Sequence record: KP869112
DNA length: 64,000 nucleotides
Direction: 5' to 3' (one strand)
Source: Escherichia coli O157 typing phage 14
Numbering within the stretch: position 1 is the stretch's first letter; the number at the start of each line of letters is the position of its first letter. The notes under the pieces were generated by a model. That model searched no databases. It was not told the DNA's origin and worked only from the letters and a program-made list of their open reading frames with translations. Below, piece after piece: positions 43,897 to 48,691 of this stretch. The translations under genes were made by a program, and so were the position numbers.

Positions 43897-44464
43897 AGTA
43901 AATCTTATTTAACATTACCTCATCCTTTGCAGAAAGGATATCAAGATATGCATCACCAAATCTTCCTGCAACAACCTCTGCATGATACATCACTTCGTTA
44001 ACATCGTCAAGAGTGATAACCGGATGACCATATCTTTCTGAATATTGTCTCAGGGTGCGATGTAACGAGTCGTCATCATATGCAGACTTTTTAATATCAC
44101 AAACACGACGAATAGCCTTGATGTCGAAAAAACCTGTGCGATACCACCCAAGAAAAAGGTTTCGTGCAGTGTCAACATCTACATTGATACCATCAAGAAC
44201 CTTATCTACAAGATAGCTGTCATCCTTTGGACCAGCGTCCTTAGTGCGAATGTAGTTGCCATCTTTTCCAGGCGATAGCTCCTTCTCATCCCCAACCTGC
44301 ATGCCATCATTTGGCGGTGTTAGCCACTTATCCGGATGCTTACGATCACGAGCGTTAGAATGATTACGCTGGAAACCGGGCTTCCACTTGAAAGTTTTCT
44401 CCATCTGTTCTTCATTCTGATAACGTTTTGCAATCTTTTCACGGTCATCTTTGCGTGAACCCAT
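43886..44464 (-). CDS. hypothetical protein
   Basis: 192 aa; strong RBS GAGGAGG before ATG at 44462-44464; preceded by a long GC-rich leader. Confidence 0.5.
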   Translation of the reverse strand: MGSRKDDREKIAKRYQNEEQMEKTFKWKPGFQRNHSNARDRKHPDKWLTPPNDGMQVGDEKELSPGKDGNYIRTKDAGPKDDSYLVDKVLDGINVDVDTARNLFLGWYRTGFFDIKAIRRVCDIKKSAYDDDSLHRTLRQYSERYGHPVITLDDVNEVMYHAEVVAGRFGDAYLDILSAKDEVMLNKIYYER

Positions 44465-44559
44465 AGCTGCCTCCTCTTCAAGTTATAGAAAAACTCACTG
44501 TATCGCTTTGTAACGAGCTTTTCTATCAAACTGGTGCGATTGCCTTACCTGGTATAGTT

Positions 44560-44860
44560 TATATAGCTGTGGGGCTATTTAGGGGCCTCCTTGTCCGTTT
44601 CCACACATAAACTTTATCCAAACTCGCGCGGGAGACTCTTAACCGACTCCTTACGGCGCTGGCAAGCTTTCGTCGGTGGTCCACATTAGTGCTCGGCCTT
44701 TGGCCTGCGCTATCGCTTCGCTCCCACACATGTTAACATACCTGCATGTATGCACTTCTGTTATTGTGTGCACTATGGAGGCCCGGCATCTCGCCCCTCG
44801 TAGGCGAGTGCCAATGAAGGGCCGACACTATCCATAGTAAGCAATAAATTTAAAACATGG
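44560..44860. other. GC-rich ORF-free island (about 300 nt); candidate structured ncRNA or long structured 5' leader
   Basis: No ORF of 60 codons or more on either strand; multiple local hairpins (CUCGCC-CCUCGUA-GGCGAG, GGCC-UUU-GGCC); lies between the AT-rich/palindrome region and the start of 43886..44464. Confidence 0.3.
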
Positions 44861-44967
44861 TACTTAGGATCTAGTATATTCTACATAAGTTAAGTATATG
44901 TACTTTAGTACCATAAGTACTAGATCTTTTATTTTTTATTATTTAGTTATTTTAGTTATATTCTTTA

Positions 44968-45094
44968 TGTGTCCGTATCACGGACAGTTAGTGTCCGTAT
45001 TACGGGCAGATGTGTCCGCGTGACGGACAGTAGTGTCCGTATTACGGGCAGATGTGTCCGCGTGACGGACAGTGGTGTCCGTATCACGGACAGT
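44968..45094. repeat. array of six 17-bp palindromic sites at 21-22 bp spacing
   Basis: TGTCCGTATCACGGACA (44970, 45076), TGTCCGTATTACGGGCA (44992, 45034) and TGTCCGCGTGACGGACA (45013, 45055), arranged A-B-C-B-C-A; flanked by an AT-rich tract with GTACT and TTTAGTTAT repeats (44870-44968). Confidence 0.85.
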
Positions 45095-45167
45095 TGATAG
45101 CTTCTGTCCCATATCGAACATAAAACATACGAATCCTTATAGTACAGATATTTAAGTTTTTACTGGT

Positions 45168-45518
45168 CTAACCAGTTGTTGACATTCGAATAACTTCTTC
45201 TGGTGGCAAAACTTTGGAAAATGTGCATCTTTTACCTCTCCCCTGTGTGGATGTTTCAACCACTCCTGCACATTCTAAAGTTTTAACGCACGCTGCTGCT
45301 TTTGTTTTCTTTATCCCAACATCTGCTGCAATTTTCCTTGTGCTGGGTGTGAAGCGTGAATTTCCTCCAAGTTTATACCAGTTGTGCAGGTAGCAGTATA
45401 CGATCTTGTCATACAAGTCAAGAACAACAACCTCCCCAGTTGTGTCATTCAAAACTTTTGACATAGACAGTATTTCAAGGGGGACTTTAAGATATAGCAG
45501 CTTATCCCCATCTTTCAT
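45168..45518 (-). CDS. putative helix-turn-helix DNA-binding protein
   Basis: 116 aa; segment STRKIAADVGIKKTKAAACVKTLECAGVV has HTH character; gene ends about 75 bp from the palindrome array. Confidence 0.45.
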   Translation of the reverse strand: MKDGDKLLYLKVPLEILSMSKVLNDTTGEVVVLDLYDKIVYCYLHNWYKLGGNSRFTPSTRKIAADVGIKKTKAAACVKTLECAGVVETSTQGRGKRCTFSKVLPPEEVIRMSTTG

Positions 45519-45565
45519 ATCTCCTGATTCTCCTTGTGTGGCAATTTTCTTTAAAATAGCAGGGA

Positions 45566-46120
45566 TTACTCCCCGCTGTCAATAGCAAAACTCATTGCAA
45601 TACGGTATGCCTCTTCTAATGGTAAGAGTCTCCCCCACACATCCCAACCGACATCAAGCTGCCTGCCAAACAACTGTTGTGTGGTTCCGTGAGCATGACC
45701 GAACAGTTGGACTGATCCGTGAGGCTTTCTGTTCCACTTTGCAAATTGGTAATGGCTCATACAGATCAAATTCTTGTTGTGGCGAAGCTCGTAATAATCT
45801 ACAACCTCGTGATAGAACTCTTTCATAATTCTGACAGTCGTCCTTGTGTCATGGTTGCCACGAACAAGAATAATATGTCCGTTCAACATATTTAGAATAT
45901 CTGGAAGTAATTTGTTGATATTCTTATCATTAGTGCACGCAATATCTCCCAAGTGGAACACAGTGTCTGCAGGTGACACAACAGAGTTCCACTCGGCGAT
46001 GATTCCCGCATTCATACTGTCAAGATTGTGATCATACTGAGATCTGTGTTTTTGACATGAATCAAACTCCATGACCCGCTGGTGGAGAAAGTGTGTGTCG
46101 CTTGTTACAAAGTATTTCAT
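45566..46120 (-). CDS. calcineurin-like metallophosphoesterase
   Basis: Start reassigned to ATG 46118-46120 (MKYFVTSDTHF, RBS GAGGAA); motifs SDTHF, LGDI, RGNHD and FGHAHG are the metallophosphoesterase signature. Confidence 0.6.
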   Translation of the reverse strand: MKYFVTSDTHFLHQRVMEFDSCQKHRSQYDHNLDSMNAGIIAEWNSVVSPADTVFHLGDIACTNDKNINKLLPDILNMLNGHIILVRGNHDTRTTVRIMKEFYHEVVDYYELRHNKNLICMSHYQFAKWNRKPHGSVQLFGHAHGTTQQLFGRQLDVGWDVWGRLLPLEEAYRIAMSFAIDSGE

Positions 46121-46127
46121 ACATTCC

Positions 46128-46538
46128 TCATTTAAGTTTAATGCAGTTTTTAAGCTGGCGTTCCATACGATCCACAACCTTGTCTGGAACATCATGAATG
46201 CTTTTATTACCGTGGCGGTTTTCAACCACGATCACGGTATAACTATACCCATGACTGATTGCCATGTCAACATATTCCTGCACATGTTTTTCTTTTGTAA
46301 ACGTATTACTTACCACGATACGGTCGTATCCCATACGCATCATATCTTCTACGTTATCTTTGCACCATTTTGCTGCGAGTGTTACTTTACTTGCATCCCA
46401 GTTGTAATTGCCGTCATCGTCATACCAGAACATGTCGTTCTCAAAATGTGGATACAGACCTTCTAAAGATAGCGCATTTGCCAGTGTTGATTTGCCAGAC
46501 CCTGGCAGACCACGCACGATATATAGCATTTTAGACAT
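46128..46538 (-). CDS. P-loop kinase (polynucleotide kinase-like)
   Basis: Start reassigned to ATG 46536-46538 (RBS GGAGGA); Walker A GLPGSGKST; about 137 aa. Confidence 0.55.
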   Translation of the reverse strand: MSKMLYIVRGLPGSGKSTLANALSLEGLYPHFENDMFWYDDDGNYNWDASKVTLAAKWCKDNVEDMMRMGYDRIVVSNTFTKEKHVQEYVDMAISHGYSYTVIVVENRHGNKSIHDVPDKVVDRMERQLKNCIKLK

Positions 46539-46659
46539 AGCAATCCTCCGTTTTAATTTTAATGATAGTATACCTAACTGTTTTGTTAATTTCAAGTGTT
46601 GACACTAGGTTATTTGTGTGGCAGGATAGACTGACAAAATGACAAATGAGGAACGTATG

Positions 46660-47574
46660 ATGAAGTATTTTAATGCAGATGACCTAGTAGACAAAGGTCT
46701 TGTAACCAGTCGGTATTATCCAGATCTTGGATTAAAGATCTATAAATATGCCAGAAAAGTATTCTACAACAATCTGTGGCATTTGTCTCCGCGTTTACTG
46801 GAGTGCCGAGGTATTGTTGTTGGCAATGAGGGGAATGTTGTGGCATGGCCTTTCACAAAAGTATTCAACTTAGGAGAAAACTCCACCAACCTACCGGACA
46901 GTAAACTTGTTACTGCGGTAGAGAAAAAGAACGGATTCCTCGGTGTGGTATCATCTCATAAAGGTGAACTATTGTTCTCAACAACCGGGTCTCTTGATTC
47001 TCCATATTGTAACCTTGCAAAGGAAACCATCCAAGAGCAATGTGGTAATTTAGATCTTATCAAGAAGGTTATGGGCAATGAAAACATGACATTCATGTTT
47101 GAAATTTGTCACCCTTCAGATCCGCATATTGTTCAAGAAGACCATGGCGCATATTTGATAGGTTGCAGATATAATGATTCTGGAATAATGCTACCAGAAG
47201 CAGCTTTAGATGGGATTGCCAAATACCTTGGTGCAAAACGTCCTCACACTGTGCGTGAAATCCCGTTCAGCTATGCAAAAGAATTAGCTGCAGAAACAAG
47301 GGGCGAAGGGTATATGATCCGTAAGCCTTACTACCCTTATGACCTGCAGCTGAAGATCAAGTCTCCATACTATTTGGCACGGAAGGCCGTAATGAGAGGT
47401 AAAGCATGGAAGATTTGGGATGACGATATTTTTAAACGTGTTGACGAGGAGTTTTACGGTATGGTAAAATTTATTCGTAGCAACTATACAGAAGATGTGT
47501 GGAATTGCTTATTAGAGCAGGAGCGTCGCGAGATACTGGACTGCTATTTCCACAACGAGGACTATATGCAATGA
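46660..47574 (+). CDS. RNA ligase (nucleotidyltransferase superfamily)
   Basis: Motif I KKNGF (KxxG lysine) and motif IV GEGYMIRK; start taken as the ATG at 46660 (RBS GAGGAA 6 nt upstream), whereas the track starts at 46639. Confidence 0.55.
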   Translation: MKYFNADDLVDKGLVTSRYYPDLGLKIYKYARKVFYNNLWHLSPRLLECRGIVVGNEGNVVAWPFTKVFNLGENSTNLPDSKLVTAVEKKNGFLGVVSSHKGELLFSTTGSLDSPYCNLAKETIQEQCGNLDLIKKVMGNENMTFMFEICHPSDPHIVQEDHGAYLIGCRYNDSGIMLPEAALDGIAKYLGAKRPHTVREIPFSYAKELAAETRGEGYMIRKPYYPYDLQLKIKSPYYLARKAVMRGKAWKIWDDDIFKRVDEEFYGMVKFIRSNYTEDVWNCLLEQERREILDCYFHNEDYMQ

Positions 47575-47921
47575 AGAAGTGGATTGTGTGGCTTGATGAT
47601 TTTAGAGATCCGTCAGATTATGGACTCCCAGACGCTCTGTGGCTAAAGAATTCTTCTGAATTTATGGATTTTCTTAATGATAAGAGAAAGCTCTACAGAC
47701 GCGTATCTGAATGGTATTTTGACAATGATCTAGGTGAAGTTCTTGAAGGGTACGACTGCTTCTCTGCGCTAGAGGAGAAACTTGTATTCGGAAAGCCACC
47801 ACTTATTGACAACGTGATTATTTTCGTGCATACTTCTAATCCATCGGCAGCTCGTAAATTTATGCTTGCTGCTGACTCATTCAAGAAGTTTGGAATAGAG
47901 ATCAAACAAAACATCTACTAA
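47571..47921 (+). CDS. hypothetical protein
   Basis: ATG overlaps the RNA ligase stop (ATGA); 116 aa; no recognisable motif. Confidence 0.4.
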   Translation: MKKWIVWLDDFRDPSDYGLPDALWLKNSSEFMDFLNDKRKLYRRVSEWYFDNDLGEVLEGYDCFSALEEKLVFGKPPLIDNVIIFVHTSNPSAARKFMLAADSFKKFGIEIKQNIY

Positions 47922-47929
47922 GGACATTT

Positions 47930-48691
47930 ATGCGACGACTTATTGTTATTTCTGGTGCTGGTTTGAGCGCAGAATCTGGTATTCCCACCTTCCGATCTGG
48001 TAGCACTGCAATGTGGGAGAATTTCAGCATCGATGAGGTGTGCAACATCCACACCTTTGCCAAGAACTACTATAAGGTGCATGACTTTTACAATGCACGT
48101 CGTGTAGCGCTGGGCAGTGTTGATCCTAACCTTGCACATCTTCGGATCGCTGAGTGGTATTCCCGCTGGTCTGGTCGTGTGATCAACCTTACCACCAATG
48201 TAGATGATTTGCTGGAGCGTGCTGGTGTAAAACATGAAGATATTTTACATGTCCACGGGTATTTGCCTGAAATCACCTACGAAGATGCTGAAGGTAATGA
48301 TGTAATTAAAAATATCGGATACACGGAGGTAGATACAGGCAAGTATACCTGGGTTAAGCCCAATGTAGTGTTCTTCGGCGAGGTTGCTCCTAAGTATACA
48401 GACATGTATGACCTGTTGACATCTCTCACCAGCAATGATATGGTGATCCTAGTGGGTTGTTCTAACACAGTTATTAATTTTAACTGGGAATTGTTTCCTG
48501 CTACTTGTAAAGGAACAAAACTGCTGATTGTAAACAAGTATGATTCGCAGAGTGCAGATGGAAGTGGCATTTCACGTAGCGACCTTTATCAATATGAGGA
48601 TCGCGGGATCCCTGTATGGTTTAACGGTGCTGTTGACGCTTTCTCTGATAAAGCATTTATTGAAACTGTAGAAAACTTTATGGAACTTTAA
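47930..48691 (+). CDS. Sir2-family (sirtuin-like) NAD-dependent enzyme lacking the zinc ribbon
   Basis: Motifs GAGLSAESGIPTFRS, TTNVDDLLERAG, catalytic HVHG, VVFFGE and VGCSNTV match the sirtuin fold; no Cys pairs between the catalytic His and VVFFGE. Confidence 0.7.
   Translation: MRRLIVISGAGLSAESGIPTFRSGSTAMWENFSIDEVCNIHTFAKNYYKVHDFYNARRVALGSVDPNLAHLRIAEWYSRWSGRVINLTTNVDDLLERAGVKHEDILHVHGYLPEITYEDAEGNDVIKNIGYTEVDTGKYTWVKPNVVFFGEVAPKYTDMYDLLTSLTSNDMVILVGCSNTVINFNWELFPATCKGTKLLIVNKYDSQSADGSGISRSDLYQYEDRGIPVWFNGAVDAFSDKAFIETVENFMEL

Follow-up and report, generated by a model that had tools for sequence, protein, structure and literature searches.

The 64,000-nucleotide stretch of Escherichia coli O157 typing phage 14 studied here (record KP869112, hereafter the window) carries an array of six 17-bp palindromes of the form TGTCCG-N5-CGGACA at 44970..45092. 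The array is flanked on one side by a 114-bp A+T-rich tract (44856..44969, 78% A+T) and on the other by a short spacer, beyond which lies the gene for a 116-aa winged-helix protein (45168..45518, minus strand), a homologue of ORF79 of phage rV5. We propose that the array and the A+T-rich tract form the vegetative replication origin of this phage, or one of its origins, and that this origin is of the lambda-type iteron class. The palindromes would be iterons (initiator-binding sites), the tract would be the DNA-unwinding element, and the 116-aa protein would be an origin-binding initiator reduced to a bare DNA-binding domain. We assign this reading, which derives from sequence comparison, a probability of approximately 0.6. 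It is favored because the array is conserved and phased, because the tract has the lowest stability in the genome, and because the same array is found inside initiator genes with the same polarity. An earlier sequence-only reading of this DNA had offered an origin, a partition site, or an operator bank as candidates; our analysis favors the first and gives little or no support to the other two.

The window belongs to a Vequintavirus, an rV5-like myovirus of E. coli, and corresponds approximately to 20–84 kb of rV5 (DQ832317). The 1.2 kb around the array matches 118 phage records at 95–99% identity, all of them from Vequintavirus. No function is stated for the array in any record, some of which annotate it only as a 'repeat_region', and a full-text search with the palindrome motif and 'iteron' returned nothing relevant. 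In the rV5 genome paper, a skew analysis meant to define the origin gave only shifts seemingly tied to the orientation of transcription. The replisome of the phage is T7-like and phage-encoded, with a gp4-like primase-helicase (rV5 ORF230) and a T7-like polymerase (rV5 ORF228), both of which are encoded outside the window. All genes from the tRNA cluster (41.8 kb) to 46.6 kb lie on the minus strand, and transcription diverges at approximately 46.6 kb.

Six phased palindromes next to the least stable DNA of the genome

The six units, at 44970-44986, 44992-45008, 45013-45029, 45034-45050, 45055-45071, and 45076-45092, deviate from TGTCCG-N5-CGGACA by 0–1 mismatch and fall into three types: A (TGTCCGTATCACGGACA, starting at 44970 and 45076), B (TGTCCGTATTACGGGCA, starting at 44992 and 45034), and C (TGTCCGCGTGACGGACA, starting at 45013 and 45055). 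Their start-to-start spacing is 22, 21, 21, 21, and 21 bp, with gaps of 4–5 bp between units. When up to two mismatches were allowed, the 64-kb window contained nine matches versus 1.26 ± 1.10 expected, and none of 100 shuffles reached nine; the three matches outside the array have two mismatches each. In the whole 137,947-bp rV5 genome, where the locus is at approximately 65.0–65.3 kb, no further site with 0–1 mismatch was found beyond the array. The six phased palindromes noticed in the sequence-only reading are real. They occupy 44970–45092, so that the range given earlier (44870–45110) also includes most of the A+T-rich tract. The order A-B-C-B-C-A was also read correctly, whereas the symmetry ascribed to it was not: the array has no dyad, its unit centers being non-palindromic and the units direct repeats, and the order is not conserved. 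The pattern arises because one extra 42-bp B-C unit has been added to the common A-B-C-A form.

As had been argued, the sites are neither LexA boxes nor clustered regularly interspaced short palindromic repeats (CRISPR). The half-site register of TGTCCG-N5-CGGACA differs from that of CTGT-N8-ACAG, and the gaps are conserved and only 4–5 bp long, compared with unique spacers of ~26–40 bp in CRISPR. Intrinsic terminators and repetitive extragenic palindromic (REP)-like elements were rejected as well, there being no terminator-like site and only a single locus in the genome; no terminator or U-tract was found at the array or in the A+T-rich tract. The spacer between the array and the stop codon of the winged-helix gene (45093..45167) contains a hypervariable stretch (45093-45125), within which a possible degenerate, unphased seventh unit, TGTCCCATATCGAACA, lies at 45105-45120.

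The A+T-rich tract contains three copies of GTACT, two copies of TTTAGTTAT, and two GATC sites, and thus the repeat-bearing tract described earlier beside the array is confirmed and placed at 44856-44969. In a nearest-neighbor stability profile, no other 60-, 100-, or 150-bp stretch in either the window or the 137,947-bp rV5 genome is as unstable as the tract. Its 100-bp stability is −1.017 kcal/mol per step, against an rV5 mean of −1.335 (standard deviation 0.057) and a next-lowest value of −1.109. No consensus sites for DnaA, IHF, or Fis-like proteins were found at the array or the tract.

Conservation of the array in Vequintavirus relatives

The array was extracted from 23 loci, of which 19 are from GenBank or assemblies and 4 from metagenomes. 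All of these keep it at 21- or 22-bp spacing with 2–4 copies: two in phage navn; three in A135, V18, FFH2, and a gut metagenome contig; and four in rV5, inoa, Gotham, APCEc02, and most others. The six copies in the window are the most seen. The comparison with relatives suggested earlier therefore bears out the phasing but not the number of sites. By BLAST, at least 80% of the region is covered in 114 of the 118 Vequintavirus records, with spans that agree with the copy numbers. Several short-read contigs and records end inside the array (L017, L018, L024, and GenBank MG065672); such breaks are expected of a tandem repeat, so that copy numbers from draft genomes may be unreliable. The array thus accounts for a recurrent assembly break and for the copy-number polymorphism of rV5-like genomes. 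It should be noted that 18 records named 'Campylobacter phage' (MG0656xx; several marked UNVERIFIED, with C. jejuni as the host) are 96–97% identical to the region and classified as Vequintavirus, which suggests mislabelling or contamination.

When 15 distinct sequences were compared, the arms and the 4–5-bp spacers of the array showed a nucleotide diversity of 0 and the 5-nt centers one of 0.065. Diversity rises to 0.24 in the 33 bp next to the array (45093-45125), is 0.05–0.07 in the surroundings, and falls to 0.032 in the A+T-rich tract, half the value of the flanks. The gene for a homologue of the 116-aa protein with only 70% identity is still followed by TGTCCGTCACACGGACA with a 21-bp period.

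The neighboring gene encodes a predicted winged-helix protein that matches replication-initiator families

A small helix-turn-helix (HTH)-type gene had been noted approximately 75 bp from the array, and the distance from the array end to the stop codon of 45168..45518 is indeed 75 bp. Because this gene is on the minus strand, the array lies downstream of it and not at its promoter. A sigma-70-like promoter (TTGACA-18-TATTTT with TG; 45553..45582, minus strand), annotated in rV5 as P76, is located upstream of the gene, and transcripts from this predicted promoter would cross the array.

The 116-aa protein is matched by PHROG 12838, 'replication initiation protein', at 5e-80, and more weakly by the N-terminal parts of three longer PHROGs that are also named 'replication initiation protein'. 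An AlphaFold (AF2) model built from 14 sequences, with a predicted local distance difference test score (pLDDT) of 82, consists of a helix, two strands, three helices, and a two-strand wing; a model from five near-identical sequences was unusable (pLDDT 45). A Foldseek search of this predicted fold against the PDB gave as its top match 4RO3, the N-terminal domain of a functionally uncharacterized Vibrio cholerae protein, and then the RepA_N plasmid initiators 5KBJ, 4PQL, and 4PT7, among which ArsR, MarR, and LexA-type regulators were interspersed with similar scores. When the ORF79 family was aligned with hhalign to the N-domains of initiators that carry the same array within their genes (described in the next section), the probability was 93.8% (E 1.7e-7) over the HTH core.

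Within the genus, the protein is conserved at 87% identity or more, and its distribution is narrow. By tblastn it was found in the 118 Vequintavirus records only, and an exhaustive HMMER search of 1.8 billion representatives returned its own cluster, one 41-residue fragment, and a few weak matches. A profile search added the 70% homologue and about ten distant HTH_36 relatives of 182–195 aa with approximately 30% identity. Over all these searches, the relatives beyond Vequintavirus amounted to a handful of 182–217-aa proteins with 26–36% identity. No relatives were found in IMG/VR, and a metagenome scan gave close relatives only. The distant relatives are located at the divergent early promoter region of other phages; one sits between the genes for a primase-helicase and PolA, and another (L025) is beside AAA_33 and RNA-ligase genes, as in the window. 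In their intergenic region, AGGT(A/G)CA motifs cluster, including a 22-bp-spaced pair by an A+T-rich stretch, and TGTCCG sites are absent.

The distant relatives (P0009, P0011, P0014-P0021) have acidic tails ending in D(E/A)PF or VPWE(A/V/I), and array-bearing initiators of 133 aa and 275 aa (open reading frames (ORFs) in L028/L039 and L052) end in LAPF and LPPF, respectively. These ends resemble the C-terminal tip of the bacterial single-stranded DNA-binding protein and may serve as a peptide that recruits a partner. No such motif terminates the 116-aa protein of the window.

The same palindrome array lies inside initiator genes of other viruses and bacteria

We scanned IMG/VR and species-representative genomes for two adjacent TGTCCG-N5-CGGACA sites 3–6 bp apart and obtained 17 viral and 37 species-representative contigs, with 2–7 copies and nearly always 20–25-bp spacing (wider in a few). 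Three control patterns with rearranged arms retrieved 0, 1, and 2 viral contigs, compared with 17 for the palindrome. By profile search, 15 of the 17 viral contigs and 4 bacterial ones have the array inside an ORF, directly after an N-terminal winged helix; inspection showed an ORF-internal array after a winged helix in the remaining two viral contigs as well. These array-bearing initiator ORFs encode 133–419 aa and contain 3–7 copies with a period of 20–23 bp (L028-L044, L049, L051, L052, L056). The HTH_36 threshold of Pfam was reached by three of ten such ORFs, and seven of eight matched the PHROG annotations 'replication initiation O-like', 'DnaD-like helicase loader', or 'replication initiation protein', the best E-value being 1e-26. 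Since the frames read differ with a 20-, 22-, or 23-bp period, the conserved feature is the DNA and not the peptide. Most of the array-bearing genes have an A+T-enriched stretch 3' of the array, for example 75–78% A+T over 40 bp in genomes of 34–39% A+T, where it encodes a lysine-rich linker. The order of winged helix, array, and A+T-enriched stretch is common to these genes and the window.

The closest similarity was found in a viral contig of 70% G+C (L029), in which the unit centers CGTGG and TATTG are those of Vequintavirus variants and the period is 21 bp. The peptide encoded by its array (VRHADT/VRNTDT) and the one obtained by translating the minus strand of the window array (VRHADT/ARNTDT) share 78% identity, and the L029 array, used as a DNA query against 50,697 phage records, retrieved Vequintavirus records only. 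Searches with tblastn and blastn found no cultured-phage relatives of the array-bearing initiators except one cyanophage N-domain match.

For 33 of the 37 bacterial tandem-palindrome loci, no initiator-like ORF was detected by profile, and these loci were not counted as support. Among them are eight syntenic contigs from metagenome-assembled genomes (MAGs) of Burkholderiales (L050, L053, L055, L061, L063, L066, L073, L081), in which a palindrome pair exactly 20 bp apart adjoins a gene for an ABC-type substrate-binding protein; this looks like an operator or an enhancer-binding-protein site, i.e. an unrelated use of the palindrome. The myxobacterial Kofleriaceae MAG DASSBL01 (L046, L057, L060) has three separate arrays with an identical unit, TGTCCGAATACCGGACA, and a 20-bp period. 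L079 contains two pairs of sites separated by 2.4 kb, and the first ORF of the segment between them, which starts with MKYRYHIGMDAHS, looks like an IS110-family transposase. The arrays of DASSBL01 and L079 may be REP-like or mobile-element-associated repeats. A single exact palindrome in IMG/VR contig L005 was an isolated site and was judged unrelated.

Comparison with known origins and a proposed mechanism

It is textbook knowledge that an origin may consist of iterons and an unwinding element located next to, or within, the gene of a winged-helix initiator. In lambda, O binds as dimers, and two iterons together with the A+T region suffice for unwinding (PMC7466680). Stx phages have six iterons compared with four in lambda, and the iteron number varies between relatives (PMC7466680). 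The four lambda iterons are 18-bp inverted repeats that start at 39034, 39054, 39078, and 39101, with a spacing of 20, 24, and 23 bp. Like ori-lambda, the window has at least two dyad-symmetric putative iterons approximately two helical turns apart (17 bp here, 18–19 bp and imperfect in lambda), an A+T-rich region that directly flanks them distal to the N-terminal coding part of the proposed initiator, and the polarity of winged-helix coding sequence, iterons, and A+T region. In contrast to lambda, whose iterons are inside gene O, the array of the window is located 75 bp past the stop codon; the iteron sequence differs, the 116-aa protein is without the helicase-loader-recruiting C-terminal domain, and the replisome is T7-like and phage-encoded instead of host DnaB delivered by P.

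The O-like and DnaD-like array genes form a class defined computationally and known from sequence. Their palindrome arms are equal to those of the window, the centers of L029 are nearly equal, and their N-domains are homologous to ORF79 by profile; they differ in that the array is translated and the protein continues into a linker and usually a C-terminal domain. The RepA_N initiators of staphylococcal plasmids (4PQL, 4PT7, 5KBJ) resemble the 116-aa protein with a template modelling score of 0.46–0.53 and 21–23% identity. They bind iterated origin sites through N-terminal winged-helix domains. With a sequence E-value of ~0.8 and Foldseek E-values of 4e-3 to 1e-2, however, they are only weakly similar to the 116-aa protein and match it no better than ArsR or MarR regulators do; RepA_N proteins also carry a host-specific C-terminal domain.

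Iteron plasmids of the Rep_3/TrfA type, such as RK2, pPS10, and R6K, have phased 17–22-bp repeats in variable number, an A+T-rich unwinding element, and a winged-helix initiator encoded in cis. Their iterons are repeated directly and contain no palindrome, they are bound by monomeric Rep with its two winged-helix domains, and DnaA boxes are usually needed. In the window, by contrast, the arms of each unit form a palindrome, the 116-aa protein contains only one winged helix, and there is no DnaA box. The sopC/SopB centromere of the F plasmid likewise consists of tandem repeats with a short inverted repeat, bound by an HTH protein and variable in copy number. Its unit is 43 bp long, and it requires a ParA/ParB-type pair and has no adjacent unwinding element; no such pair is annotated in rV5, and the array of the window adjoins the proposed unwinding element.

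Based on these comparisons, we envision the following mechanism. The predicted sigma-70-like promoter (45582->45553) would drive early expression of the 116-aa protein, dimers of which would bind each palindrome, as suggested by the homology to HTH_36, O-like, and RepA_N N-domains. The 21–22-bp phasing sets the sites at a distance that would place the dimers on one face of the helix, where they may oligomerize and wrap the DNA in a structure like the O-some. The stress of wrapping could then melt the adjacent 114-bp tract, in keeping with the stability profile, and the gp4-like primase-helicase and the T7-like polymerase (rV5 ORF230 and ORF228) would load on the bubble. Copy numbers range from 2 to 6, with at least two copies always kept, and probably drift by slippage in steps of 21 or 42 bp. 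The 116-aa protein could be either a minimal or a degraded initiator.

Evidence against the origin and alternative functions of the array

Several observations weigh against an origin at this site. The 116-aa protein falls just below the Pfam cut-offs for both DUF6945 (27.4 bits, cut-off 28) and HTH_36 (24.5 bits, cut-off 25). Its fold is generic: the Foldseek scores of ArsR, MarR, and LexA-type regulators are close to those of RepA_N. A direct comparison with lambda O revealed no similarity. The protein ends after its single winged helix, with no counterpart of the O/DnaD-type C-terminal domain, which leaves helicase recruitment unexplained. The cumulative GC skew of rV5 has its global minimum at 66689, only 1.45 kb from the array; because this minimum falls exactly on the switch in transcription direction, it is inseparable from gene orientation and supports an origin only weakly. 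The constancy of arms and spacers may overstate the constraint, since tandem arrays can be homogenized by gene conversion. The operator-like position of the pair in the eight Burkholderiales contigs indicates that the motif alone does not mark an origin. Finally, rV5 has a second repeat-rich, low-stability non-coding region outside the window (104013-106618; L022 12013-14618), the 'non-coding' box of the rV5 paper. This 2.6-kb region, where two transcription units converge, is dense in AGTTTAC and CTGTTTACA-type direct and inverted repeats, includes the second least stable 100-bp stretch of the genome, and has no Rfam match; it could equally be an origin, or else a packaging (pac) region. The generic fold, the sub-threshold Pfam scores, the confounded skew, the second rV5 region, the Burkholderiales pairs, and gene conversion are the reasons why we do not raise our confidence further.

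An operator or roadblock bank is an unlikely alternative, in which the 116-aa protein would be a transcription factor that coats the palindromes and blocks or tunes read-through into ORF77-74 and the tRNA cluster, or represses an unrecognized promoter in the A+T-rich tract. The protein is called 'putative transcriptional regulator' in most GenBank records, its fold is as near to ArsR, MarR, and LexA-type repressors as to initiators, and the Burkholderiales pairs show the same palindrome in an operator-like position. Moreover, the array is situated between co-directional genes, ORF77 and ORF76 have no annotated promoter of their own, and one GenBank record has a PhagePromoter call adjoining the array. 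This reading nevertheless has little support because no promoter was found at the array: no sigma-70, extended -10, T4-late, or rV5-late-like match occurs at or beside the array or in the A+T-rich tract, and none of the 33 promoters curated in rV5 is located there, phage-specific types of another kind being possible. As the array is the sole site in the genome, there would be no regulon, and both the extreme A+T-rich tract and the recurrence of the array inside initiator genes would be left unexplained. It is quite improbable that the locus is a decayed remnant, that is, an acquired O-like initiator gene with an internal origin that has broken into an N-domain ORF and former iterons with little or no replication function. 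Such decay would account for the fact that the other carriers with an identifiable gene hold the array inside a 133–419-aa initiator ORF while the stop codon here precedes it by 75 bp, and for the frame of the array homologous to theirs being out of frame with the 116-aa gene (45518-45121 = 397, 397 mod 3 = 1). The hypervariable junction fits as well, as does a tblastn search over 1.3 kb that found no C-terminal initiator domain downstream of the array. However, the arms and spacers have remained invariant and the protein well conserved while the junction diverged freely, the A+T-rich tract is better conserved than its flanks, at least two copies persist in all genomes, and even the 70%-identical homologue keeps the arms at a 21-bp period.

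A pac or centromere-like site, at which the small winged-helix protein would play the role of a terminase small subunit or of a partition adaptor, is very improbable in our view. Phased repeats bound by small winged-helix proteins do occur in cosB/pac sites and in tubC/sopC-type centromeres. Vequintaviruses package by the headful mechanism from circularly permuted concatemers, and the terminase gene is approximately 4 kb away in the same transcription unit. On the other hand, the 116-aa family matches replication initiators throughout and no terminase small subunit, and homologous arrays are inside initiator genes. The partition variant is without support because no ParA/ParB-type gene is annotated in rV5; genes of the ParM/ParR and TubZ/TubR types are also missing from its annotation, the neighbors of the array being a phosphoesterase, an AAA_33 kinase, and unknowns, and a virulent phage has no obvious need for partition. 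We give equally little credence to an RNA element, in which the 3' untranslated region of the mRNA of the winged-helix gene would fold into six tandem hairpins that serve as a degradation barrier, a processing site, or a protein platform. Each unit can form a 6–7-bp stem with a 3–5-nt loop, and the array would be transcribed if the upstream promoter reads through. But what is conserved in the arms is their sequence, without compensatory changes, and the sense (minus-strand) RNA of unit B contains a C-A mismatch, which nearly all relatives examined retain and metagenome locus L088 lacks. Besides the lack of a terminator, no RNA family in Rfam reached the gathering threshold in the window, and at E-values up to 10 the only match of note in 44400-45200 was a weak one to Listeria rli43 (24.5 bits, threshold 100). 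The 20–23-bp periods and several reading frames of the arrays inside coding sequences elsewhere also argue for a constraint at the level of DNA.

Implications

The array and the tract provide a specific candidate, approximately 240 bp and one small gene, for the hitherto unmapped origin of rV5-like phages, with a candidate initiator that consists of a DNA-binding domain only and an origin outside its gene. The palindrome also marks a widespread and so far undescribed set of initiator-embedded arrays, mostly in uncultivated phages, which could serve automatic origin annotation. Phages of the rV5 type are common isolates and components of cocktails for biocontrol and therapy, and an origin candidate would aid their engineering, for example in origin-containing shuttle constructs and replication-defective derivatives.

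A more far-reaching idea, which we put forward only tentatively, is that the window holds a split, minimal lambda-type origin, with a bare 116-aa iteron-binding protein and the origin outside its gene, and that TGTCCG-N5-CGGACA is a portable iteron across viruses and bacteria. In a split minimal origin, opening would be uncoupled from initiator-mediated helicase recruitment, and the gp4-like primase-helicase would load itself at the melted tract. If the iteron is portable, divergent winged-helix initiators from genomes of 30–59% A+T would share it, pointing to horizontal exchange of whole origin modules, in this case between a high-G+C virus lineage and a coliphage.

Other features near the array

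Between the A+T-rich tract and the next gene is a 296-bp non-coding segment (44560..44855) that is conserved across the genus (diversity 0.065) and stands out by its high G+C content in a genome of 44% G+C. A 56-aa ORF78 is annotated there in rV5, but its frame shows no codon-position bias, with 10, 9, and 12 variable sites at the three positions, and the segment was rejected as a gene. A structured RNA was likewise rejected: the minus strand has a fold z-score of −2.8, but there is no covariation, many pairs are broken, and Rfam gives no match. The segment may belong to the origin region or serve as an untranslated leader.

Upstream of the winged-helix gene, an apparent RNA-repair cassette extends across the divergent promoter region (45566-48691). 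It comprises a calcineurin-like phosphoesterase (45566..46120) and an AAA_33 kinase-like protein (46128..46595) on the minus strand, a T4 RnlA-type RNA ligase 1 (46639..47574) and a SIR2-like protein (47930..48691) on the plus strand, and a cREC_REC-like small protein. In the tRNA cluster, ARAGORN predicted a 99-nt tRNA-like gene on the minus strand (42021-42119) between tRNA-Thr and tRNA-Ser, at a position left blank in the rV5 record. It has a four-base 'anticodon' (atcc) and scores 35.5 bits with the Rfam tRNA model, and it may be an intron-containing, frameshift-suppressor-like, or degenerate tRNA.

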